The notes under the pieces: generated by a model | Databases searched by the model: none | Told to the model about the DNA's origin: nothing | Seen by the model: the letters and a program-made list of their open reading frames with translations, nothing else | Translations under genes and position numbers: made by a program | Source of the DNA: a virus | Taxonomy: Duplodnaviria > Heunggongvirae > Uroviricota > Caudoviricetes | Reading direction: 5' to 3' (one strand) | IMG/VR virus record: IMGVR_UViG_2681813267_000008 | Coordinates: 1 to 9,875 of that record | DNA length: 9,875 bases | Part shown: one piece after another, positions 1 through 9,875 of the stretch | How positions within the stretch are numbered: the stretch's first letter is position 1 | Layout: each line of letters starts with the position of its first letter

Positions 1-33
1 ACTGGTTGTCTGGAGATTCAGGGGGCCAGTCTA
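1..33 (-). mobile_element. Terminal ~33 bp of an IS2-like element (left inverted repeat on the minus strand; element body lies outside the window to the left)
   Basis: Reverse complement of 1-33 is TAGACTGGCCCCCTGAATCTCCAGACAACCAGT, which matches the IS2 left terminus as I recall it (TAGACTGGCCCCCTGAATCTCCAGACAACC...) over about 30 nt. Identification is by recall, not search. Confidence 0.5.
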
Positions 34-153
34 CGGACATTTTCTGCCTGTGGACCAGGAAAGTGCACGGGTGCTTTCCACTCCCATGAAGCCCGGCAAT
101 CCGCGCAGATACAGTAATAAACGAACTGACAGCAGTAAGATGGAGCGTTTCTT

Positions 154-411
154 TTGAACAACCAGACAATGACTTTTACCCCTGAACAATTGCGTAAACA
201 CGCGCAGGAAATGCTGCGTCATGCTGAACAACTCGAAAAAACGGGCATAACAAAAGACGCTATCCGTAAAGATATGGTACCCGCGCTTCGGGAACTGATG
301 CAGGCGAAGCATCGCGCACAGAAAGCAGTAGATGAGCTGGTGGACTGTGTGGCAGAGCTGGAAACCAGAGTCGGAAAGTTTGAAAAACTGGTGCAGGAGG
401 TGCTGCGCTGA
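154..411 (+). CDS. Hypothetical small prophage protein (85 aa from TTG 154; 80 aa if ATG 169 is the start)
   Basis: Open frame ending at TGA 409-411, which overlaps the rusA ATG (TGATG coupling). GGAG at 142-145 sits 8 nt upstream of TTG 154; ATG 169 has no obvious SD. Composition is protein-like and charged. I recognise no family. Confidence 0.5.
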   Translation: MNNQTMTFTPEQLRKHAQEMLRHAEQLEKTGITKDAIRKDMVPALRELMQAKHRAQKAVDELVDCVAELETRVGKFEKLVQEVLR

Positions 412-785
412 TGCGCCATGAGTTTATTTTACCTTATCCGCCGACGGTGAATACTTACTGGCGACGTCGTGACAACACATATTTTGTATCAAAAGCCGGT
501 GAGCGTTATCGCCGGGATGTGGCGCTTATTGTCCGTCAGCAGCGACTGAAATTAAGCCTGTCCGGAAGACTGGCGATAAAGATTATTGCAGAGCCACCGG
601 ATAAGCGCCGTCGTGACCTGGACAATATCCTGAAAGCACCACTGGATGCACTGACACATGCGGGAGTGTTAATGGACGATGAGCAGTTTGATGAAATCAA
701 TATCGTTCGTGGTCAGCCAGTATCTGGTGGACGTCTGGGGGTGAAGATTTACCCCATAATGCATGAAGAGCAGGTCAAAAAATGA
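411..785 (+). CDS. rusA: RusA-family Holliday junction resolvase (124 aa)
   Basis: ATG 411 is preceded by GCAGGAGG at 392-399. The protein has the RRRDLDN acidic catalytic motif and resembles E. coli RusA as I recall it in length and motif placement. Stop overlaps the next ATG (ATGA at 782-785). Confidence 0.85.
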   Translation: MRHEFILPYPPTVNTYWRRRDNTYFVSKAGERYRRDVALIVRQQRLKLSLSGRLAIKIIAEPPDKRRRDLDNILKAPLDALTHAGVLMDDEQFDEINIVRGQPVSGGRLGVKIYPIMHEEQVKK

Positions 786-1636
786 AACTGGAAGATTTAC
801 CGAAATACTACTCCCCAAAATCCCCTTGCCTGACCGATGCATCGGCCTCAACGTCAAAAGATGCGCTGAGTATCACTGATGTGATGGCCGCGCAGGGCAT
901 GACACAGAATCGGGCTGAGATGGGGTTTTCTGCGTTCCTGGGGAAAATGGGCATCAGTATGAATGACAGGGCGCGGGCAACAGAATTACTGGCAGATTAT
1001 GCACTCAGTCGGTGCGATCGTGTGGCGGCGTTGAGAAAACTTCCGGCAGAAATAAAACCGGTAGTGATGCGCATTATGGCTTCGTACGCTTTTGAGGATT
1101 ATGCCCGCAGCGCAGCGAGTAAAAAGCAGTGCCCTTGTTGCTATGGGGAAAAATTTATTGAAAGCGTAGTTTTTACAAACAAGGTCCAGTATCCGGATGG
1201 TAAGCCGCCGGTATGGGCAAAGTGTACGAAAGGTGTGTATCCGTCTTACTGGGAAGAATGGAAAAAAGTCAGGGAGGTGGTAAAAGTTGCCTGTCCGGAG
1301 TGTGGCGGAAAGGGTGAGGTTTCCACCGCCTGTAAGGATTGCCGTGGGCGTGGTGTCGCCATTCATCGTGAAGAGTCGGTAAAACGTGGTATGCCTGTTA
1401 TCAGAGACTGCCAGCGTTGTGGTGGTCGTGGCTATGAAAGACTACCATCAACGGAGGCATTTAATGCTATATGCGAGGTGACAAACCAGATAACACGCGC
1501 GTCATGGGAAAAAACAGTTAAGAAATTCTATGATGCGCTGGTGACTCGGTTTGATATTGAAGAAGCATGGGCTGAGCGGCAGTTAAAAAAGGTAACTAGG
1601 TTGATTTTTCCGGAATCTGTGGTAAATTCGTCATAA
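782..1636 (+). CDS. Late-gene antiterminator Q-like protein (284 aa) with four CxxCxGxG zinc-finger repeats
   Basis: Translationally coupled to rusA and followed immediately by a pR'-like promoter and intrinsic terminator, the canonical lambdoid Q position. Repeats CPCCYGEK, CPECGGKG, CKDCRGRG, CQRCGGRG are visible. Assignment as Q is positional plus motif inference. Confidence 0.55.
   Translation: MKLEDLPKYYSPKSPCLTDASASTSKDALSITDVMAAQGMTQNRAEMGFSAFLGKMGISMNDRARATELLADYALSRCDRVAALRKLPAEIKPVVMRIMASYAFEDYARSAASKKQCPCCYGEKFIESVVFTNKVQYPDGKPPVWAKCTKGVYPSYWEEWKKVREVVKVACPECGGKGEVSTACKDCRGRGVAIHREESVKRGMPVIRDCQRCGGRGYERLPSTEAFNAICEVTNQITRASWEKTVKKFYDALVTRFDIEEAWAERQLKKVTRLIFPESVVNSS
1601..1628 (+). 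promoter_or_regulatory. pR'-like late promoter candidate (TTGATT, 16-bp spacer, TAAATT)
   Basis: TTGATT at 1601-1606 and TAAATT at 1623-1628, overlapping the 3' end of the Q-like ORF and about 50 nt upstream of an intrinsic terminator. This parallels lambda pR'/tR'. Confidence 0.4.
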
Positions 1637-1677
1637 CTATGGGCGTTTTATGCCTGACGTTAGAAGAGTTTCTACAA

Positions 1678-1699
1678 CCCGCCGCCGAGCGGGTTTTTT
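1678..1699 (+). terminator. tR'-like rho-independent terminator
   Basis: Stem CCCGC (1678-1682) / GCGGG (1689-1693), 6-nt loop, then TTTTTT at 1694-1699. Confidence 0.6.
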
Positions 1700-1738
1700 A
1701 TTGCGGAATTAATTACGGACCGTTATTATTCTGCTCCC

Positions 1739-1814
1739 GGCCCTTTAGCTCAGTGGTGAGAGCGAGCGACTCATAATCGCCAGGTCGCTGGTTCAAATCC
1801 AGCAAGGGCCACCA
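1739..1814 (+). tRNA. ileZ: tRNA-Ile2-like, anticodon CAU (ileX-like; could formally be elongator tRNA-Met)
   Basis: Hand-folded cloverleaf: acceptor GGCCCTT/AAGGGCC, D-arm GCTC..GAGC, anticodon loop CTCATAA, T-loop TTCAAAT, discriminator A, encoded CCA. Resembles E. coli ileX as I recall it. Confidence 0.8.
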
Positions 1815-1821
1815 TCACAAA

Positions 1822-1901
1822 CCGCCATTAGCTTATCAGGAAGAGCAGACGACACGATAACAGGGTTGTTGGTGCGGGGGCGGGTCCCCGATGGCGGTCC
1901 A
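1822..1901 (+). pseudogene. Degenerate tRNA-like remnant (argN-like acceptor arm, disrupted anticodon arm and T-loop)
   Basis: Shares acceptor halves CCGCCAT/ATGGCGG and CCA with the intact tRNA-Arg(UCG) at 4943-5019, but the interior does not fold into an anticodon stem-loop and the T-loop lacks TTCAAGT. Length is 80 nt versus 77. Confidence 0.5.
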
Positions 1902-1914
1902 TTATCGGTATTCA

Positions 1915-1991
1915 GCGTTGTTAGCTCAGCCGGACAGAGCAATTGCCTTCTAAGCAATCGGTCACTGGTTCGAATCCAGTACAGCGCGCCA
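1915..1991 (+). tRNA. argO: tRNA-Arg, anticodon UCU (reads AGA/AGG)
   Basis: Acceptor GCGTTGT/ACAGCGC (one G-U pair), D-arm GCTC..GAGC, anticodon stem ATTGC/GCAAT with loop CTTCTAA, T-loop TTCGAAT, encoded CCA. Confidence 0.8.
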
Positions 1992-2101
1992 TATTCATTC
2001 TTCCAGATTCCTTCCGGCAGAGCCTTATACTGAAATATACCTGGCTCAGGATATTGTTGAAAATATTTTATGTTTGTCAAAAATAAAAGTTCTGTTAAGT
2101 A

Positions 2102-2455
2102 TTGATTGAGTGTTTGTTATACGGTCTAATGGTTTTTTCAGCATTAAATATTTATCATTCATATGGTGTGGGTAGAGTGAATATTGATGAGGCGTCGGGG
2201 TGTTTCATCCTTAGGCAGCGTATTGATATAGTCAATGCAGCACGAGCAAAGGCCTTCAGCCGTTTGACAGTTTTGTTCTGTACTCCTGATCGTCTTTCGG
2301 GAAGAGACGTTATTATTCTGAATAGTGATGCTATACAGAGGGTTTGCGATGAGTTCATGGTTGCTAATTCAGAATTATTTGCTCTTGTTCAGGAGTACAA
2401 CAGAATAGCCAGGACCTGTGGTATGGATGAACTTCGGATTACTCATCTGGGGTAG
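2102..2455 (+). CDS. Hypothetical protein (117 aa from TTG 2102; 108 aa from ATG 2129), function unknown
   Basis: The plus-frame product has balanced, protein-like composition, while the antisense ORF 2155-2358 is Ser/Thr/Arg-rich. No convincing SD at either start. The same ORF recurs at 5220-5573. Confidence 0.35.
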   Translation: MIECLLYGLMVFSALNIYHSYGVGRVNIDEASGCFILRQRIDIVNAARAKAFSRLTVLFCTPDRLSGRDVIILNSDAIQRVCDEFMVANSELFALVQEYNRIARTCGMDELRITHLG

Positions 2456-2769
2456 ATACATATCTGGATTATCACCTGTTACGGTAAAAAGTGATTGCTT
2501 ACTGTTTTTGTGAATGGCATTGCAGCAGCCGGATAATGTCAGTGCTGGCTGACGGTGTGCTGGTGGCGGGTGTGGTGGTTGTTGCTTTCCCGTTGCTGAA
2601 AAAGAAAACGCCAGACTGTTAGCCGGGTATCAGTTAGCGGGAGAAATTTTTAAATACTTCACAATTCAGGCGGTTGACTGTTGTCTGGTTTGCGGGGAGT
2701 TTGTTAAAAGAAACTGGCATGGTGAATCCCCCTGTGCGGAGGGGCAATCAGCGAGTAGGTATATGGGAN

Positions 2770-3188
2770 TCCAGTATCCGGATGGTAAGCCGCCGGTATG
2801 GGCAAAGTGTACGAAAGGTGTGTATCCGTCTTACTGGGAAGAATGGAAAAAAGTCAGGGAGGTGGTAAAAGTTGCCTGTCCGGAGTGTGGCGGAAAGGGT
2901 GAGGTTTCCACCGCCTGTAAGGATTGCCGTGGGCGTGGTGTCGCCATTCATCGTGAAGAGTCGGTAAAACGTGGTATGCCTGTTATCAGAGACTGCCAGC
3001 GTTGTGGTGGTCGTGGCTATGAAAGACTACCATCAACGGAGGCATTTAATGCTATATGCGAGGTGACAAACCAGATAACACGCGCGTCATGGGAAAAAAC
3101 AGTTAAGAAATTTTATGATGCGCTGGTGACCCGGTTTGATATTGAAGAAGCATGGGCTGAGCGGCAGTTAAAAAAGGTAACTAGGTAA
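2770..3188 (+). pseudogene. 3' fragment of a paralogous Q-like gene (C-terminal ~139 codons), beginning at the ambiguous base 2769
   Basis: 2770-3188 aligns to 1185-1600 of the full Q-like gene with a few substitutions. A 7-nt insertion (TAACAAG) relative to copy 1 creates a stop at 3186-3188, giving a ...KKVTR C-terminus. No start codon or N-terminal half. Confidence 0.5.
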
Positions 3189-3193
3189 CAAGG

Positions 3194-3221
3194 TTGATTT
3201 TTCCGGAATCTGTGGTAAATT
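3194..3221 (+). promoter_or_regulatory. pR'-like late promoter candidate (copy 2)
   Basis: TTGATT at 3194-3199, 16-bp spacer, TAAATT at 3216-3221. Same elements as 1601-1628 but here located after the Q stop codon. Confidence 0.35.
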
Positions 3222-3270
3222 CGTCATAACGATGGGCGTTTTATGCCTGACGTTAGAAGAGTTTCTACAA

Positions 3271-3292
3271 CCCGCCGCCGAGCGGGTTTTTT
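3271..3292 (+). terminator. tR'-like rho-independent terminator (copy 2)
   Basis: CCCGC / GCGGG stem followed by TTTTTT; identical to 1678-1699. Confidence 0.6.
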
Positions 3293-3412
3293 ATGACTGA
3301 AATCGCGTCAGTACAGTAAACGCGCTGGTGGCGGTGAATACCTGTCTTTCAGCTTGCTGGCTTTTTCGACAAGAGTTATTGGTGTGTCACGTTAACCGGA
3401 AAAGGAAAAGAC

Positions 3413-3610
3413 ATGCTAAAACAGCAGGATATGACAGAAACCGCCAGAGTGGTGTTTAATGAATTAAGCGTTACCGAACCGGCGACAGTCGGGGAGATAG
3501 CGCAGAATACTTACCTTTCACGCGAACGCTGCCAGTTAATACTGACCCAGCTGGTTATGGCGGGTCTGGCAGACTATCAGTTCGGTTGTTACAGACGCCT
3601 TCCGCAGTGA
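3413..3610 (+). CDS. Small winged-helix/HTH protein, PapI/FaeA-like (65 aa)
   Basis: ATG 3413 is preceded by AAGGAAAAG. Residues TVGEIAQNTYLSRERCQLILTQLVMAGL form a helix-turn-helix pattern resembling PapI/FaeA regulators (EIA ... AGM/L); the family call is pattern-based from memory. An intrinsic terminator follows directly. Confidence 0.5.
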   Translation: MLKQQDMTETARVVFNELSVTEPATVGEIAQNTYLSRERCQLILTQLVMAGLADYQFGCYRRLPQ

Positions 3611-3620
3611 AGGCTTTTTT
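3597..3620 (+). terminator. Rho-independent terminator after the small HTH ORF
   Basis: Stem GCCTTC (3597-3602) / GAAGGC (3609-3614), loop CGCAGT, then TTTTTT at 3615-3620. Confidence 0.6.
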
Positions 3621-3637
3621 ATTTGTGGTAAATGGGC

Positions 3638-3668
3638 GGCTGGTGGGTGTTAGGGGCACCCACCAGCC
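3638..3668. repeat. Perfect 12-bp inverted repeat with 7-nt spacer (GGCTGGTGGGTG ttagggg CACCCACCAGCC)
   Basis: Exact reverse-complement arms read directly from the sequence. Lies between the HTH ORF terminator and the methyltransferase gene. No U-tract on either strand, so it is more likely an operator or processing site than a terminator. Confidence 0.5.
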
Positions 3669-3760
3669 ATCTGCTCATGCGTTGGGTTCACAAGCAAACC
3701 TCAGGCCCACTGCTTTGCGCAAAAGCAGAATGAGCCTATCAGAGACAGGCTTAATGATCC

Positions 3761-4819
3761 ATGCTTAATACTGTAAAAATATCCAGTTGTGAGTTAATCA
3801 ACGCCGACTGCCTGGAATTTATCCGGTCGTTACCCGAAAATTCTGTTGACCTGATAGTCACGGACCCGCCGTACTTTAAAGTGAAGCCTGAGGGCTGGGA
3901 TAACCAGTGGAAGGGCGACGATGATTACCTGAAGTGGCTGGACCAGTGTCTGGCGCAGTTCTGGCGGGTGCTGAAACCTGCCGGAAGTCTTTACCTGTTC
4001 TGTGGTCATCGCCTGGCATCTGATATCGAAATCATGATGCGTGAACGCTTCAGTGTGCTGAACCATATTATCTGGGCGAAGCCGTCCGGACGCTGGAACG
4101 GATGCAACAAGGAAAGCCTGCGGGCGTATTTCCCCGCCACAGAGCGCATTCTGTTCGCGGAACATTATCAGGGGCCGTATCGTCCGAAAGATGCCGGGTA
4201 TGCGGCGAAGGGCAGTGCACTGAAACAGCATGTGATGGCCCCGCTGATTTCTTACTTTCGTGATGCGCGAGCTGCCCTGGGGATAACGGCAAAACAGATT
4301 GCAGATGCCACAGGAAAGAAAAACATGGTGTCGCACTGGTTCAGTGCCGGTCAGTGGCAGTTGCCGAATGAAAGCGATTATCTGAAATTACAGGCGCTGT
4401 TTGCCCGGGTGGCAGAAGAGAAGCATCGGCGTGGTGAACTGGAAAAGCTCCACCACCAGCTGGTGGATACGTATACCTCACTGAACCGGCAGTATGCGGA
4501 GCTGCTGAGTGAATATAAACATCTGCGGCGGTATTTTGGCGTGACGGTGCAGGTGCCGTATACCGATGTGTGGACGCATAAACCGGTGCAGTTCTATCCC
4601 GGGAAACATCCGTGCGAAAAACCGGCAGAAATGCTGCAGCAGATAATCAGCGCTAGCAGTCGTCCGGGTGACCTGATTGCAGATTTTTTCATGGGGTTGG
4701 GTTCGACAGTGAAAGCGGCACTGGCGCTCGGGCGTCGTGCAATTGGCGTTGAGCTGGAGACTGAACGTTTTGAGCAGACGGTTCGGGAAGTACAGGATTT
4801 AGTCAGCCAGAACGGATGA
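3761..4819 (+). CDS. DNA methyltransferase, beta-class amino-MTase (N6-adenine or N4-cytosine), 352 aa, with a central insertion
   Basis: Motif order is IV then I: DPPY at residues 35-38, VLKPAGSLYLF, NHIIWAKP, then HPCEKP and DFFMGLGST near the C-terminus. A ~170-aa insertion contains an HTH-like stretch (ITAKQIADATGKK). No partner restriction-endonuclease ORF is present. Confidence 0.85.
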   Translation: MLNTVKISSCELINADCLEFIRSLPENSVDLIVTDPPYFKVKPEGWDNQWKGDDDYLKWLDQCLAQFWRVLKPAGSLYLFCGHRLASDIEIMMRERFSVLNHIIWAKPSGRWNGCNKESLRAYFPATERILFAEHYQGPYRPKDAGYAAKGSALKQHVMAPLISYFRDARAALGITAKQIADATGKKNMVSHWFSAGQWQLPNESDYLKLQALFARVAEEKHRRGELEKLHHQLVDTYTSLNRQYAELLSEYKHLRRYFGVTVQVPYTDVWTHKPVQFYPGKHPCEKPAEMLQQIISASSRPGDLIADFFMGLGSTVKAALALGRRAIGVELETERFEQTVREVQDLVSQNG

Positions 4820-4859
4820 TATTGAAGAATTAATTACGCGTCGTTATTATGCGGCTCCC

Positions 4860-4935
4860 GGCCCTTTAGCTCAGTGGTGAGAGCGAGCGACTCATAATCG
4901 CCAGGTCGCTGGTTCAAATCCAGCAAGGGCCACCA
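4860..4935 (+). tRNA. ileZ: tRNA-Ile2-like, anticodon CAU (copy 2)
   Basis: Identical to 1739-1814. Confidence 0.8.
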
Positions 4936-4942
4936 TCACATA

Positions 4943-5019
4943 CCGCCATTAGCTCATCAGGAAAGAGCGCCAGCCTTCGAAGCTGGCTGCGCGGGGTTCA
5001 AGTCCCCGATGGCGGTCCA
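4943..5019 (+). tRNA. argN: tRNA-Arg, anticodon UCG (reads CGA)
   Basis: Acceptor CCGCCAT/ATGGCGG, D-arm GCTC..GAGC, anticodon stem CCAGC/GCTGG with loop CTTCGAA, T-arm CGGGG-TTCAAGT-CCCCG, encoded CCA. The 5' C start is unusual but the fold is complete. Confidence 0.75.
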
Positions 5020-5032
5020 TTATCTGCATCAT

Positions 5033-5109
5033 GCGTTGTTAGCTCAGCCGGACAGAGCAATTGCCTTCTAAGCAATCGGTCACTGGTTCGAATCCAGTAC
5101 AGCGCGCCA
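5033..5109 (+). tRNA. argO: tRNA-Arg, anticodon UCU (copy 2)
   Basis: Identical to 1915-1991. Confidence 0.8.
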
Positions 5110-5219
5110 TATTCATTCTTCCAGATTCCTTCCGGCAGAGCCTTATACTGAAATATACCTGGCTCAGGATATTGTTGAAAATATTTTATGTTTGTCAAAA
5201 ATAAAAGTTCTGTTAAGTA

Positions 5220-5573
5220 TTGATTGAGTGTTTGTTATACGGTCTAATGGTTTTTTCAGCATTAAATATTTATCATTCATATGGTGTGGGTAGAGTGAAT
5301 ATTGATGAGGCGTCGGGGTGTTTCATCCTTAGGCAGCGTATTGATATAGTCAATGCAGCACGAGCAAAGGCCTTCAGCCGTTTGACAGTTTTGTTCTGTA
5401 CTCCTGATCGTCTTTCGGGAAGAGACGTTATTATTCTGAATAGTGATGCTATACAGAGGGTTTGCGATGAGTTCATGGTTGCTAATTCAGAATTATTTGC
5501 TCTTGTTCAGGAGTACAACAGAATAGCCAGGACCTGTGGTATGGATGAACTTCGGATTACTCATCTGGGGTAG
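5220..5573 (+). CDS. Hypothetical protein (second copy of the 117-aa ORF)
   Basis: Translation identical to 2102-2455. Confidence 0.35.
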   Translation: MIECLLYGLMVFSALNIYHSYGVGRVNIDEASGCFILRQRIDIVNAARAKAFSRLTVLFCTPDRLSGRDVIILNSDAIQRVCDEFMVANSELFALVQEYNRIARTCGMDELRITHLG

Positions 5574-5966
5574 ATACATATCTGGATTATCACCTGTTAC
5601 GGTAAAAAGTGATTGCTTACTGTTTTTGTGAATGGCATTGCAGCAGCCGGATAATGTCAGTGCTGGCTGACGGTGTGCTGGTGGCGGGTGTGGTGGTTGT
5701 TGCTTTCCCGTTGCTGAAAAAGAAAACGCCAGACTGTTAGCCGGGTATCAGTTAGCGGGAGAAATTTTTAAATACTTCACAATTCAGGCGGTTGACTGTT
5801 GTCTGGTTTGCGGGGAGTTTGTTAAAAGAAACTGGCATGGTGAATCCCCCTGTGCGGAGGGGCAATCAGCGAGTAGGTATATGGGATAATCGCGGATTCA
5901 GGTGCTGGTACTGAATTCACCGGGAGGCACCCGGCACCATGCAATGGCACATAGCGCCACTCTCCA

Positions 5967-6000
5967 GCCCCTCTCCGGAGGGGCTGTTTATATTGATTTT
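5967..6000 (+). terminator. GC-rich hairpin with U-rich tail (terminator-like)
   Basis: Stem CCCCTC (5967-5972) / GAGGGG (5977-5982), tetraloop TCCG, then CTGTTTATATTGATTTTG. Recurs at about 7716-7740 and, partly, after the gap at 9074-9110. Confidence 0.4.
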
Positions 6001-6131
6001 GTCAGATGTGANGGTGGGTGTTAGGGGCACCCACCAGCCATCTGCTCATGCGTTGGGTTCACAAGCAAACCTCAGGCCCACTGCTTTGCGCAAAAGCAGA
6101 ATGAGCCTATCAGAGACAGGCTTAATGATCC

Positions 6132-7190
6132 ATGCTTAATACTGTAAAAATATCCAGTTGTGAGTTAATCAACGCCGACTGCCTGGAATTTATCCGGTCG
6201 TTACCCGAAAATTCTGTTGACCTGATAGTCACGGACCCGCCGTACTTTAAAGTGAAGCCTGAGGGCTGGGATAACCAGTGGAAGGGCGACGATGATTACC
6301 TGAAGTGGCTGGACCAGTGTCTGGCGCAGTTCTGGCGGGTGCTGAAACCTGCCGGAAGTCTTTACCTGTTCTGTGGTCATCGCCTGGCATCTGATATCGA
6401 AATCATGATGCGTGAACGCTTCAGTGTGCTGAACCATATTATCTGGGCGAAGCCGTCCGGACGCTGGAACGGATGCAACAAGGAAAGCCTGCGGGCGTAT
6501 TTCCCCGCCACAGAGCGCATTCTGTTCGCGGAACATTATCAGGGGCCGTATCGTCCGAAAGATGCCGGGTATGCGGCGAAGGGCAGTGCACTGAAACAGC
6601 ATGTGATGGCCCCGCTGATTTCTTACTTTCGTGATGCGCGAGCTGCCCTGGGGATAACGGCAAAACAGATTGCAGATGCCACAGGAAAGAAAAACATGGT
6701 GTCGCACTGGTTCAGTGCCGGTCAGTGGCAGTTGCCGAATGAAAGCGATTATCTGAAATTACAGGCGCTGTTTGCCCGGGTGGCAGAAGAGAAGCATCGG
6801 CGTGGTGAACTGGAAAAGCTCCACCACCAGCTGGTGGATACGTATACCTCACTGAACCGGCAGTATGCGGAGCTGCTGAGTGAATATAAACATCTGCGGC
6901 GGTATTTTGGCGTGACGGTGCAGGTGCCGTATACCGATGTGTGGACGCATAAACCGGTGCAGTTCTATCCCGGGAAACATCCGTGCGAAAAACCGGCAGA
7001 AATGCTGCAGCAGATAATCAGCGCTAGCAGTCGTCCGGGTGACCTGATTGCAGATTTTTTCATGGGGTTGGGTTCGACAGTGAAAGCGGCACTGGCGCTC
7101 GGGCGTCGTGCAATTGGCGTTGAGCTGGAGACTGAACGTTTTGAGCAGACGGTTCGGGAAGTACAGGATTTAGTCAGCCAGAACGGATGA
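6132..7190 (+). CDS. DNA methyltransferase, beta-class amino-MTase (second identical copy)
   Basis: 352-aa translation identical to 3761-4819. Upstream homology begins exactly at the ambiguous base 6012, inside the left arm of the 12-bp inverted repeat. Confidence 0.85.
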   Translation: MLNTVKISSCELINADCLEFIRSLPENSVDLIVTDPPYFKVKPEGWDNQWKGDDDYLKWLDQCLAQFWRVLKPAGSLYLFCGHRLASDIEIMMRERFSVLNHIIWAKPSGRWNGCNKESLRAYFPATERILFAEHYQGPYRPKDAGYAAKGSALKQHVMAPLISYFRDARAALGITAKQIADATGKKNMVSHWFSAGQWQLPNESDYLKLQALFARVAEEKHRRGELEKLHHQLVDTYTSLNRQYAELLSEYKHLRRYFGVTVQVPYTDVWTHKPVQFYPGKHPCEKPAEMLQQIISASSRPGDLIADFFMGLGSTVKAALALGRRAIGVELETERFEQTVREVQDLVSQNG

Positions 7191-7230
7191 TATTGAAGAA
7201 TTAATTACGCGTCGTTATTATGCGGCTCCC

Positions 7231-7306
7231 GGCCCTTTAGCTCAGTGGTGAGAGCGAGCGACTCATAATCGCCAGGTCGCTGGTTCAAATCCAGCAAGGG
7301 CCACCA
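7231..7306 (+). tRNA. ileZ: tRNA-Ile2-like, anticodon CAU (copy 3)
   Basis: Identical to 4860-4935. Confidence 0.8.
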
Positions 7307-7313
7307 TCACATA

Positions 7314-7390
7314 CCGCCATTAGCTCATCAGGAAAGAGCGCCAGCCTTCGAAGCTGGCTGCGCGGGGTTCAAGTCCCCGATGGCGGTCCA
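7314..7390 (+). tRNA. argN: tRNA-Arg, anticodon UCG (copy 3)
   Basis: Identical to 4943-5019. Confidence 0.75.
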
Positions 7391-7403
7391 TTATCTGCAT
7401 CAT

Positions 7404-7480
7404 GCGTTGTTAGCTCAGCCGGACAGAGCAATTGCCTTCTAAGCAATCGGTCACTGGTTCGAATCCAGTACAACGCGCCA
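7404..7480 (+). tRNA. argO: tRNA-Arg, anticodon UCU (copy 3; acceptor stem fully Watson-Crick)
   Basis: Same fold as the other copies, but the 3' acceptor strand is ACAACGC instead of ACAGCGC, which converts the G-U pair to A-U. Confidence 0.8.
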
Positions 7481-7494
7481 CACTTATTTTCCCT

Positions 7495-7520
7495 GGCTCG
7501 CTTTTGCGGGCCTTTTTTTT
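7495..7520 (+). terminator. Rho-independent terminator immediately after the tRNA array
   Basis: Stem GGCTCGC / GCGGGCC (one G-U pair), loop TTTT, then TTTTTTTT at 7513-7520. Confidence 0.55.
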
Positions 7521-7967
7521 AAATGTCTCACAATTCAGACGGTTGACAGTTGTCTGTTTTGCGGGGAGTTTGTTAAAAGAAACTGGCATGGTGAATCCCC
7601 CTGTGCGGAGGGGCAATCAGCGAGTAGGTATATGGGATAATCGCGGATTCAGGTGCTGGTACTGAATTCACCGGGAGGCACCCGGCATCATGCAATGGCA
7701 CATAGCGCCACTCTCCAGCCCTCTCCGGAGGGGCTTTTCTGTGCCGGATACATCACAGTTTCTGGAACCTTAGGTACTACAGTATCAGTCAGGGTGCTAT
7801 ATTTTCAGATGTGATGAAAGCCTGTCAGCAGGCAGGGCGTATCGGAAATGACCCAGTAGAGAAAACGTTGACTCAGATACCGGTGCTGAGTTACCGGGAA
7901 ACCGGCATCACATGACCGCTATCCTGAGGTGTACTGGCAATAGCGGACACTACCATTTGTTCTTTTT

Positions 7968-8786
7968 TTAAGCAGCCATCTGATGATATTTTTCCCTGAA
8001 GGCTGCCGGGGAGATATTCCCCAGACGAGAGTGACGACGCTGACGATTGTAGAAAATCTCAATGTATTCCCGTATTACTGAGATGGCTTCATCCCGGTTA
8101 TTAAAACGATAGTGGCTCAGGCTCTCATTTTTCAGCGTTCCCCAGAAGCTTTCCATCGGAGCGTTGTCGTAACAGTTACCTTTACGCGACATTGATGTTT
8201 TCAGACCAGACTGCTCCTGTATGACCCGGTAATCGTATGCGCAGTACTGTGAACCTCGATCAGAGTGGTGGATTAGCCCGGCAGGTGGGCGCTGGCTCCT
8301 GAGCGCCATAAACAGGGCTTTACCTGTCAGCTCTTTTGTCATGCGCTCTCCCATGGCGTAGCCGACAATTTCGCACGTATAAACATCTTTGATGCCAGCG
8401 AGGTACAACCATCCCTCCTGTGTGGCAACATACGTCAGGTCCGCCACCCAGACCTGATTTGGTGCTGTAGGAGCGAACGTCTGGTTCAGCAGATTTGGCG
8501 CAACTGGCAGATTGTGGTTCGAGTTCGTAGTCGCTCTGAACTTGCGTTTCTGCTTACAGCGTAGCCTTAGCTCCTTACGAAGACGTGCCAGTCGGTCACG
8601 ACCAACGATGATGCCATTCTCTGCCAGCTCCGTCTGGAGCCGCCGGGTTCCATATGTTTCGCGAGTGCGGATATGTGCCACCTTAATCTCCAGTTTTAGC
8701 CGCTCATCACTTTGTTTTCTGTCTGAGGGTTCATGCTGTACCCAGTTGTAATAACCGCTCCTGGATACACCAAATACCTGACACAT
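7968..8786 (-). CDS. IS3-family transposase OrfB (DDE integrase core), 272 aa from the annotated ATG; naturally expressed as an OrfAB frameshift fusion
   Basis: Catalytic residues in VWVADLTY, HHSDRGSQY and YDNAPMESF. The frame stays open upstream into the orfA overlap. Confidence 0.9.
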   Translation of the reverse strand: MCQVFGVSRSGYYNWVQHEPSDRKQSDERLKLEIKVAHIRTRETYGTRRLQTELAENGIIVGRDRLARLRKELRLRCKQKRKFRATTNSNHNLPVAPNLLNQTFAPTAPNQVWVADLTYVATQEGWLYLAGIKDVYTCEIVGYAMGERMTKELTGKALFMALRSQRPPAGLIHHSDRGSQYCAYDYRVIQEQSGLKTSMSRKGNCYDNAPMESFWGTLKNESLSHYRFNNRDEAISVIREYIEIFYNRQRRHSRLGNISPAAFREKYHQMAA

Positions 8787-8821
8787 CGCTTCAATGGGAA
8801 ATTGTTGTCGCCATTGTTCGA

Positions 8822-9062
8822 TTAACGCGTATTTTTCAGCGACTCCTGTGCAAAATACGCTGTTGCTTTTTTTAATATATCTCGCTCAAGGCGAGCTTCA
8901 TTTAACGCCTTACGCAGTTGCAGAATTTCAGATTCCAGTTCAGCCACCGTGCGGGAACCAGGAGTACCGAGCCCTTTTCTGGCGGCGGTAACCCATTGTC
9001 CTAAAGTGCCTTCAGGAAGAGATAATCGGGAAGCGCCTTCACTGATCGAAAGTTGATTTTCA
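8822..9062 (-). CDS. IS3-family transposase OrfA, 3' portion only (5' end lost in the N gap)
   Basis: Minus-strand translation reads ...GQWVTAARKGLGTPGSRTVAELESEILQLRKALNEARLERDILKKATAYFAQESLKNTR then stop (plus 8822-8824). Leucine-zipper-like heptads and an A AAA AAA slippery site are present. Confidence 0.75.
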
Positions 9063-9073
9063 NNNNNNNNNNN
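9063..9073. other. Assembly gap (11 N)
   Basis: Run of N. Sequence on the left is IS interior; sequence on the right resumes in the terminator-like hairpin repeat. Confidence 0.95.
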
Positions 9074-9121
9074 CTCCGGAGGGGCTGTTTATATTGATTT
9101 TGTCAGATGTGAGTAAACTCC

Positions 9122-9457
9122 TTATGGACTTTGTTGTTTTAGTCCATAAGGACATATTTGCAGAGTGCAACGGTTATTAAAGCATTCATTCAATACGTTA
9201 TCTGTATTTGTAGGGCATTCCTGGCTATTTTTGATTGAATTCCAGAATGTTTTATTGAATGGTACTACGTTGTAAATGGTTACAGGTAGCACTTTGTTAT
9301 TGAGCATGATGCCTGTGTGAGTCAGTGTAAATATACTTTCAGGAGGTAAGAAAGCATCCGATTGATACCAGATTATTAATTTTATTTTACTCCATATGAC
9401 TGAAAAAGATATTCCGCATGATGGCTGGATAACTGTATCAATCACAATCCACTTCAT
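9122..9457 (-). CDS. Hypothetical Cys-containing protein (111 aa) in an AT-rich cargo block
   Basis: True ATG with SD AAGGAA 5 nt upstream on the minus strand. The ORF ends inside a perfect 11-bp-stem hairpin (9120-9151). The surrounding ~600 bp is visibly AT-rich. I recognise no family. Confidence 0.45.
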
Positions 9458-9717
9458 TTAGTTTCCTTGTTTATGCCTTGCTGGTGATGTTCTGAAAAGT
9501 ATAAATGATATTTTTGAATGTAAACCATAGAGCAGAATTATTTTTCTGATGTTGTTTATTGTTTATTTAAATGCAGGGTGGTTTATATCTCGTCTTGTAG
9601 TTTATCCATGCATATCTGCTTGATAATCAGGTTTTTATTTAAGGTATGGTTTTGTGTTTTTTCTGTATTACATGTCAGGTATTTTAAAGAATTATTTTTC
9701 AGATGGTGGAAAGAACC

Positions 9718-9844
9718 ATGGCATTTAAACACTATGATGTTGTCAGGGCGGCGCCGCCGTCAGATCTTGCGGAAAAGCTGACACATAAACTGAAAGAGGG
9801 CTGGCAGCCGTTTGGTAGTCCGGTGGCCATAACCCCTTATACCC
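9718..9844 (+). CDS. Small hypothetical prophage protein, interrupted after codon 42 by the IS3-family element
   Basis: ATG 9718 is preceded by GGTGGA. Translation MAFKHYDVVRAAPPSDLAEKLTHKLKEGWQPFGSPVAITPYT runs in frame straight into the IS terminus at 9845. Confidence 0.35.
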
Positions 9845-9875
9845 TGAGGTGTACTGGCAATAGCGGACACTACCA
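9845..9875 (-). mobile_element. Terminus of a second copy of the same IS3-family element (continues beyond the window)
   Basis: 9845-9875 (TGAGGTGTACTGGCAATAGCGGACACTACCA) is identical to 7925-7955; the flanking DNA differs, so this is an independent insertion. Confidence 0.65.

Follow-up and report, generated by a model that had tools for sequence, protein, structure and literature searches.

The late region of 933W-type lambdoid (Stx-phage-like) phages carries the antiterminator gene Q, a terminator and the ileZ-argN-argO transfer RNA (tRNA) genes, followed by a cargo site and the lysis genes. In Shigella dysenteriae 1, a spontaneous tandem amplification of the prophage-borne stx operon was reportedly described by McDonough and Butterton in 1999, and is said to have proceeded through flanking insertion sequence (IS) copies. 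Here we analyzed a stretch of 9,875 nucleotides (nt), hereafter the window, covering positions 1 to 9,875 of the IMG/VR record IMGVR_UViG_2681813267_000008, in which parts of such a late region, including Q, DNA methyltransferase and tRNA genes, stand in series. A first-pass annotation had proposed that this tandem layout is probably an assembly artefact. Our comparisons with closed chromosomes agree: the window is very probably a scaffolding artefact from a short-read draft of Shigella sonnei, and neither a tandem duplication nor a continuous piece of genome.

The lambdoid late-regulatory module itself is readily recognized, as Q lies next to RusA and is followed by a tRNA cluster, with holin and lysozyme genes downstream in closed loci. 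In complete Escherichia coli genomes the module is present as a single copy of ~4.75 kb, in the order RusA, Q, 65-aa open reading frame (ORF), methyltransferase, tRNAs, DUF3927, IraM, DUF1737 and lysis genes, and the whole 9.9-kb window collapses onto it.

The only characters of the window other than A, C, G and T are an n at 2769 (J1), an n at 6012 (J2) and 11 N at 9063-9073 (J3). They separate segments A (1-2768), B (2770-6011), C (6013-9062) and D (9074-9875), which share one strand and follow the order of the module. Aligning the window to itself with BLAST paired A 1185-1701 with B 2770-3294 (97.9%), A 1699-2768 with B 4820-5886 (96.9%), B 3642-5122 with C 6013-7492 (99.66%), B 5765-5989 with C 7516-7738 (96%), B 5973-6011 with D 9074-9112 (39/39) and C 7920-7955 with D 9840-9875, the latter at an IS600 end. 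Five of the six positions that flank the Ns (2768, 2770, 6011, 6013 and 9074) are exact edges of these internal homologies; the binomial chance of this is ~1e-12, and none of 200,000 random placements gave five such coincidences. The remaining one, 9062, falls within IS600 orfA, which has no second copy within the window. Past each N the homology is not resumed on the same diagonal, so these are true switches and not high-scoring segment pairs split by an N.

The coincidence of Ns with homology breakpoints claimed from the sequence alone was therefore confirmed, with 9062 as the exception, and the three switches are those that had been described. At J1 the sequence passes from the post-tRNA region to the middle of Q (2770 corresponds to A 1185), at J2 from the hairpin tail to base 5 in the left arm of the 12-nt inverted repeat that precedes the methyltransferase gene, and at J3 from the interior of the IS orfA to the base that ends the left arm of the hairpin. 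The offsets between homologous blocks (1585, 3121, 2371, 1751 and 3101) are all unequal, so there is no repeat unit. Segment ends had been expected to overlap the other segments by tens of bases. This applies to B/D (39 nt) and D/IS600 (33 nt) but not to the remaining exact overlaps, which reach 854 nt at the end of A, 343 nt at the start of B and 1460 nt at the start of C.

To place the segments, we used 20 closed S. sonnei loci, 10 of a locus X and 10 of a locus Z, reached by exact-protein look-ups, and assigned the window to them by exact-substring tests. Each locus is single-copy in the closed S. sonnei chromosomes, where the window sequences are found at 100% or near-100% identity. Locus X runs IS21/IS2-like remnant, 85-aa ORF, RusA, Q (284 aa), tRNAs, 92-aa ORF, DUF3927, PmrD/IraM-like gene, truncated DUF1737 and IS600, and locus Z runs DUF968, RusA', Q' (273 aa), 65-aa ORF, methyltransferase, tRNAs, IS600, nanS-like SASA esterase and holin. 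Every non-N base of the window belongs to one or the other, in the pattern A (X), B (Z then X), C (Z) and D (X), so that each N is a jump between loci. Of the pieces between the gaps, A, C and D are colinear with closed genomes, being exact substrings of them, whereas B is not and splits into a Z part and an X part. The gap characters sit where colinearity with related genomes breaks, either between X and Z or to a backward position.

The two loci are far apart. The exact Q of segment A and the exact methyltransferase are encoded on the same chromosomes at different places, 663-781 kb from each other: ~2,533,866 and ~1,865,199 in CP104423.1 (~669 kb), ~2,491,001 and ~1,827,736 in CBDDMI010000001.1 (~663 kb), and ~1,321,807 and ~2,102,449 in HE616528.1 (~781 kb). 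HE616528.1 is S. sonnei 53G, and CP019689.1, used below, is strain 75/02 (PMC5447701). When the overlapping ends are merged, the closed-genome sequence is recovered. The path A + B[5887-6011] + D matches 3656/3656 positions in L210, L211, L213 and L214, and B[2770-3641] + C is found gap-free over 3922 nt at 99.975% in five chromosomes. Comparison with a closed genome of the same lineage had been suggested as a check of the layout, and it revealed two distant loci and none of J1-J3.

The junctions were also searched for more widely. Queries of 301-311 bp centred on each N were compared with 5,426 complete E. coli genomes, a collection that does not include Shigella and in which the best matches to the window reach 96-98% and carry neither of the IS600 insertions that mark the lineage (7922|7923 in locus Z and 9847|9848 in locus X). 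Both halves of J2 occurred together in 0/5,426 of these genomes, and so did both halves of J3. The sole candidate for J1 in this set, H71, was rejected, as in a local alignment it had a deletion but otherwise the usual order, with mid-Q upstream of the post-tRNA region. Exact patterns with a wildcard at the N gave no match for J1 in IMG/VR, metagenome contigs or GTDB representative genomes, and none for J2 in IMG/VR and metagenome contigs. None of the three was present in the 20 closed S. sonnei loci, even when a spacer of 0-200 nt was allowed, or in 200 fetched loci with a spacer of 0-15 nt.

Among these 200 loci the ordinary continuations were found 181, 39, 46 and 121 times. The end of A continues as 'taatcgcgg...' in 181 and the B tail runs into D in 121 (at 100% in L123), and C is preceded by sequence like B 3295-3641 in L203, L204 and the closed Z loci. 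Positive controls recovered A running into its downstream sequence in at least 120 viral contigs and the B tail running into D in at least 119. As for J3, the start of D lies in locus X ~1.9 kb upstream of the IS600 position matching 9062, and the 11 N leave no room for the 124 nt that IS600 lacks there.

Sister drafts in IMG/VR contain the same segments at 100% identity in other orders, with their own single Ns at their own switch points. L123 has B then D, continuous, and then IS600; L067 has A, the tail and D, with an intact DUF1737 gene; L068 has A, the tail and D (to 9758), an N and then C (from 6035); L014 and L202 have A, a C-type distal part and then IS600; and L203 and L204, both N-free, have the Q region, the 65-aa ORF and then C. 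Identical pieces that are permuted, with Ns at the seams, are a sign of an ambiguous assembly graph and not of biology. In L203, A[1-1184] + B[2770-3641] + C is continuous over 4040 nt at 99.975%. The links behind J1 and J2 are thus partly real, and the lone n seems to stand for overlapping contigs set end to end rather than for random joins. A 1184 is the last single-nucleotide polymorphism between the Q allele of A and the divergent allele of L204, and the first base of B is homologous to the next one; B thus begins where two paths converge. The end of B and the start of D overlap by exactly 39 nt, as graph nodes do, and the outer ends of the window lie ~33 nt inside an IS3-family element on the left and 28 nt inside IS600 on the right. 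The start of C and the join in L068 are both located at the same 31-nt hairpin.

The comparisons show that S. sonnei carries two lambdoid prophage remnants, both riddled with IS elements, which are identical over long parts of their late-regulatory regions, that the contigs overlap one another in these parts, and that contigs of different loci meet at the Ns. The assembler produced four contigs, each running into a shared stretch and stopping there. We infer that a scaffolding step then linked the contigs, probably via read pairs that map ambiguously in the shared stretches; such linking would explain why L203 contains A[1-1184] to B and B[2770-3641] to C as genuine continuations. Ends that could not be merged would be written in series, a lone n standing for a zero or negative gap and the 11 N for a small estimated gap. 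As a result, 854 nt of X and 1460 nt of Z stand twice in the window, which falsely suggests a tandem of two Q tails, two methyltransferase genes and three tRNA clusters.

Several observations weigh against this account. The case against the junctions in the isolate itself is indirect. No branch point was found in the fetched sequences for either the end of A (2768) or the start of C (6013), and the earlier idea of assembly-graph nodes joined at repeats fits the start of B, the 39-nt B/D overlap and the outer IS ends but does not explain these two positions. Likewise, a uniform k-mer graph with 39-nt overlaps at all contig ends was considered and set aside; it fits the start of B and B/D and fails at the end of A and the start of C. 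The literature did not confirm that scaffolders write a lone n for a negative gap; it offered only the end-to-end default of scaffold_builder. Finally, the join within B recurs in the independent draft L123, which purely random misassembly does not predict.

The joins might instead have been made by reference-guided tiling, in which paralogous contigs are placed on one prophage copy, sorted by start and written end to end. By default, scaffold_builder joins overlapping contigs with non-aligning ends in this end-to-end manner (PMC4177539), and the order of the segments in the window is that of their starts on the canonical copy L001 (3001, 3778, 4650 and 6984), all on one strand. However, any S. 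sonnei reference has X and Z apart, so that A and D would map far from C, and L068 has D before C, unlike start-sorting, which argues for read-pair scaffolding. As the sole mechanism tiling was rejected, since it fits the segment order but not L068; we hold it to be a minor possibility that would alter only which tool made the artefact, and not the verdict on the layout. Far less probable is a real layout, in which local mosaic amplification or rearrangement placed parts of X and Z in series, with the Ns as low-quality calls at new joints. Prophage-borne DNA amplification is documented in Shigella (the stx operon of S. dysenteriae 1; McDonough and Butterton 1999, cited in PMC7819885), and the four segments do follow each other on one strand in module order. 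Yet there is no constant period, the three junctions are unlike each other and none lies at an IS end (J3 is 124 nt inside IS600), the copies differ by up to 3% and, where they agree, are 100% identical to two distant single-copy loci, the junctions are absent in every collection searched, and sister assemblies permute the same pieces. Taken together, this makes real amplification very improbable. The chance that the single n are ordinary ambiguous base calls in continuous sequence is smaller still, practically nil. Such calls do exist in the related contig L159 (IMGVR_UViG_2609460218_000008), where six of eight single Ns are continuous elsewhere, four of them in 8-55 loci, and one (5226) is join-like. 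In the same flank-continuity test, in which true ambiguous Ns of L159 had flanks continuous in 40-55 loci, the Ns of the window and of L068 were continuous in 0 loci, each window flank alone being common. This difference between L159 and the window means that the test discriminates join Ns from ambiguous bases. With the change of homology diagonal at each N, the discontinuity of the flanks in the 200 loci and the absence of the junctions in closed loci, an ambiguous-base reading of the window is refuted.

Segment B deserves separate consideration. The first-pass annotation had held that adjacency within each segment can be trusted. This is correct for A, C and D, which are exact in closed chromosomes, but not for B, which consists of a Z part and an X part with 69 nt in common. 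B is probably an X/Z chimera with its crossover at the 69-nt exact repeat 5033-5101, judging from its composition; the alternative, that contig B is real while the Ns are still scaffold joins, strikes us as distinctly unlikely. B would then belong to a third late region of hybrid make-up, or to a recombinant of X and Z with the exchange in the shared tRNA-Arg gene; either way, the 92-aa ORF, DUF3927, the IraM-like gene and DUF1737' would come after the methyltransferase and tRNAs. E. coli prophages naturally show such a gene order, B aligns colinearly with the closed strain 300709 at 96%, and L123 contains the same join at 100% over 3995 nt. On the other hand, the join (5000-5140) is exact in 0/20 closed S. 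sonnei loci. Of all the loci fetched, the draft L123 alone contains it, and there the same pipeline working on the same repeat structure could have repeated the error. In the 10 long contexts shown for each, the exact methyltransferase occurs in a Z-type context only, and the 92-aa ORF directly after Q and never after the methyltransferase. That the halves are 100% identical to Z and X and share only 69 nt has the look of a mis-threaded repeat, and we therefore favor a chimeric B. The coordinates of all segments, junctions and genes are given in Table 1.

Table 1. Segments, junctions and genes of the 9,875-nt window
Feature	Position	Strand	Segment	Remarks
Terminal ~33 nt of multi-copy IS3-family element	1..33	-		Longer part of the element present in sister contigs L014 and L068
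Segment A, left part of locus X	1..2768	+	A	Exact 2768/2768 in L210 (CP019689.1), L211, L213 and L214
85-aa ORF	154-411		A	
RusA (PF05866)	411-785		A	Pfam, closed-genome gene calls
Q antiterminator, 284 aa (PF03589)	782-1636		A	Pfam, closed-genome gene calls
tRNA-Ile2(CAT)	1739-1814		A	ARAGORN
Decayed argN	between tRNA-Ile2 and tRNA-Arg(TCT)		A	
tRNA-Arg(TCT)	1915-1991		A	ARAGORN
92/117-aa ORF	2177-2455; second copy 5295-5573		A and B	
DUF3927	2491-2622		A	
J1	2769			Jump from locus X (post-tRNA region) to locus Z (mid Q')
Segment B left part, locus Z	2770..5101	+	B	2332 nt exact in 8/10 closed Z loci and 0/10 X loci
3' part of Q'	2770 to 3188		B	
65-aa ORF	3413-3610		B	
12-nt inverted repeat	arms 3638-3649 / 3657-3668		B	
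N6/N4 DNA methyltransferase (PF01555), 352 aa	3761-4819		B	
tRNA-Ile2	4860-4935		B	ARAGORN
tRNA-Arg(TCG)	4943-5019		B	ARAGORN
tRNA-Arg(TCT)	from 5033		B	ARAGORN
69-nt exact repeat in tRNA-Arg(TCT)	5033..5101	+	B	Identical in 10/10 X and 10/10 Z loci
Segment B right part, locus X	5033..6011	+	B	979 nt exact in 9/10 closed X loci and 0/10 Z loci
Terminator-like hairpin	5965-5986		B	In the tail
J2	6012			Jump from locus X (hairpin tail) to locus Z (inverted repeat upstream of methyltransferase)
Segment C, locus Z	6013..9062	+	C	3050 nt exact in L223 (LR213449.1); 6013-7922 exact in 9/10 closed Z loci
Methyltransferase	6132-7190		C	Same DNA as 3761-4819
Three tRNAs	7231-7480		C	Followed by distal spacer
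IS600	7923-9062	-	C	Ends 124 nt short of its other end; RefSeq annotation
J3, 11 N	9063..9073			Jump from IS600 interior to locus X hairpin tail
Segment D, right part of locus X	9074..9875	+	D	Exact in 10/10 closed X loci
IraM/PmrD-like gene (PF11183)	9122-9457	-	D	RefSeq: anti-adapter protein IraM
DUF1737 gene, 5' part	9718-9847		D	
IS600, first 28 nt	9848-9875		D	Right end of scaffold stops inside IS600

Some of these features are of interest in their own right. The Q allele of segment A lacks, at 1598, 8 nt that are found in B and locus Z (3186-3193, around 'taacaagg'), by which the stop codon is lost and Q grows from 273 to 284 aa. Many complete S. sonnei chromosomes encode precisely this 284-aa protein, which is thus a real allele, not an error. 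ARAGORN predicted two tRNAs in A and three in each of B and C (Ile2(CAT), Arg(TCG) and Arg(TCT)); the middle one (argN, TCG) is decayed in locus X, where 1815-1914 differs from 4936-5032 by many substitutions and indels. The ORF that follows encodes 92 aa, or 117 aa from an upstream TTG, has no Pfam match and is kept directly 3' of the tRNA cluster in many prophages of E. coli and Shigella. The DUF3927 protein is too widespread in E. coli to inform on the number of loci per chromosome. The right part of B repeats A 1915-2768 and adds a 125-nt tail with the terminator-like hairpin. Between this hairpin tail and DUF1737, the IraM/PmrD-like gene is prophage-borne and might represent a host-regulation cargo of this prophage family.

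The insertion sequences also differ among strains. At the left end of the window, the upstream sequence in L068 had 25,779 matches, spread over 4,925 E. coli genomes and annotated as IS3-family transposase, with the match stopping at about window position 33. This element, which we take to be the left end of IS2, abuts IS21 istA/istB in closed S. sonnei chromosomes. In the closed X loci (L206-L215) an IpaH-type effector gene (LRR_TTSS + NEL) and DinI are found ~7-9 kb upstream of window position 1, in a neighborhood of nested IS21, IS1 and IS3-family elements. The IS600 insertion of locus Z is absent in S. sonnei 53G, L224, L225 and the sister contig L068, and that of locus X, in the DUF1737 gene, is absent in the sister contig L067; in 53G an IS1 is nested within the locus X IS600 copy. 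The continuation of D into IS600 is present in L123, L030, L205 and the closed X loci. The full length of IS600 is ~1264 bp (from L002), and L014 reads beyond window position 9062 into the remainder of orfA. L014 is identical to window 7638-8890 and then has 13 mismatches within the 91 nt of 8891-8981, which may reflect the assembly of this stretch from different IS600 copies or variants, or from a mosaic.

Taken at face value, the window would be a small provirus-like contig with a duplicated methyltransferase, three tRNA clusters, a Q truncated at its 5' end and an incomplete IS600, none of which is real. There is no new biology in this layout, and its value is one of data hygiene. A lone N in draft or provirus collections may mark a joint between contigs instead of an ambiguous base, and a quick flank-continuity test against related contigs separates the two. 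Even an N-free contig can be a chimera, and a repeat no longer than the 69-nt tRNA segment shared by paralogous prophages may suffice for it.

Compared with the known systems, the closed loci resemble the Stx-phage-like late region in having RusA, Q, methyltransferase, Ile2/Arg/Arg tRNAs, DUF1737 or a nanS-like esterase, and holin in the same order. They differ from it in that stx is absent, X and Z are defective and interrupted by IS600, IS1, IS21 and an IS2-like element, and locus X has a decayed argN and no methyltransferase. With the stx amplification of S. dysenteriae 1 the window shares the genus, the context of a defective lambdoid prophage and a nearby IS600. A true amplification, however, consists of one unit repeated at a constant period, with copies that are nearly identical and junctions that recur unchanged at IS copies; none of this holds in the window. 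Repeat-induced scaffolding joins of short-read bacterial drafts are the closest match; in these, multi-mapping read pairs link contigs of paralogous prophages or IS elements, and placeholder Ns are written between them. The window departs from them in that its overlaps are mostly exact over 343-1460 nt, with the same DNA written twice, and in that contig B, though free of Ns, has the look of a chimera formed across a 69-nt tRNA repeat. What it has in common with them are Ns at the switch points, outer ends in IS elements, a 39-nt node-type overlap, sister assemblies that are linearized otherwise, and a collapse of the overlaps that gives the closed-genome sequence.

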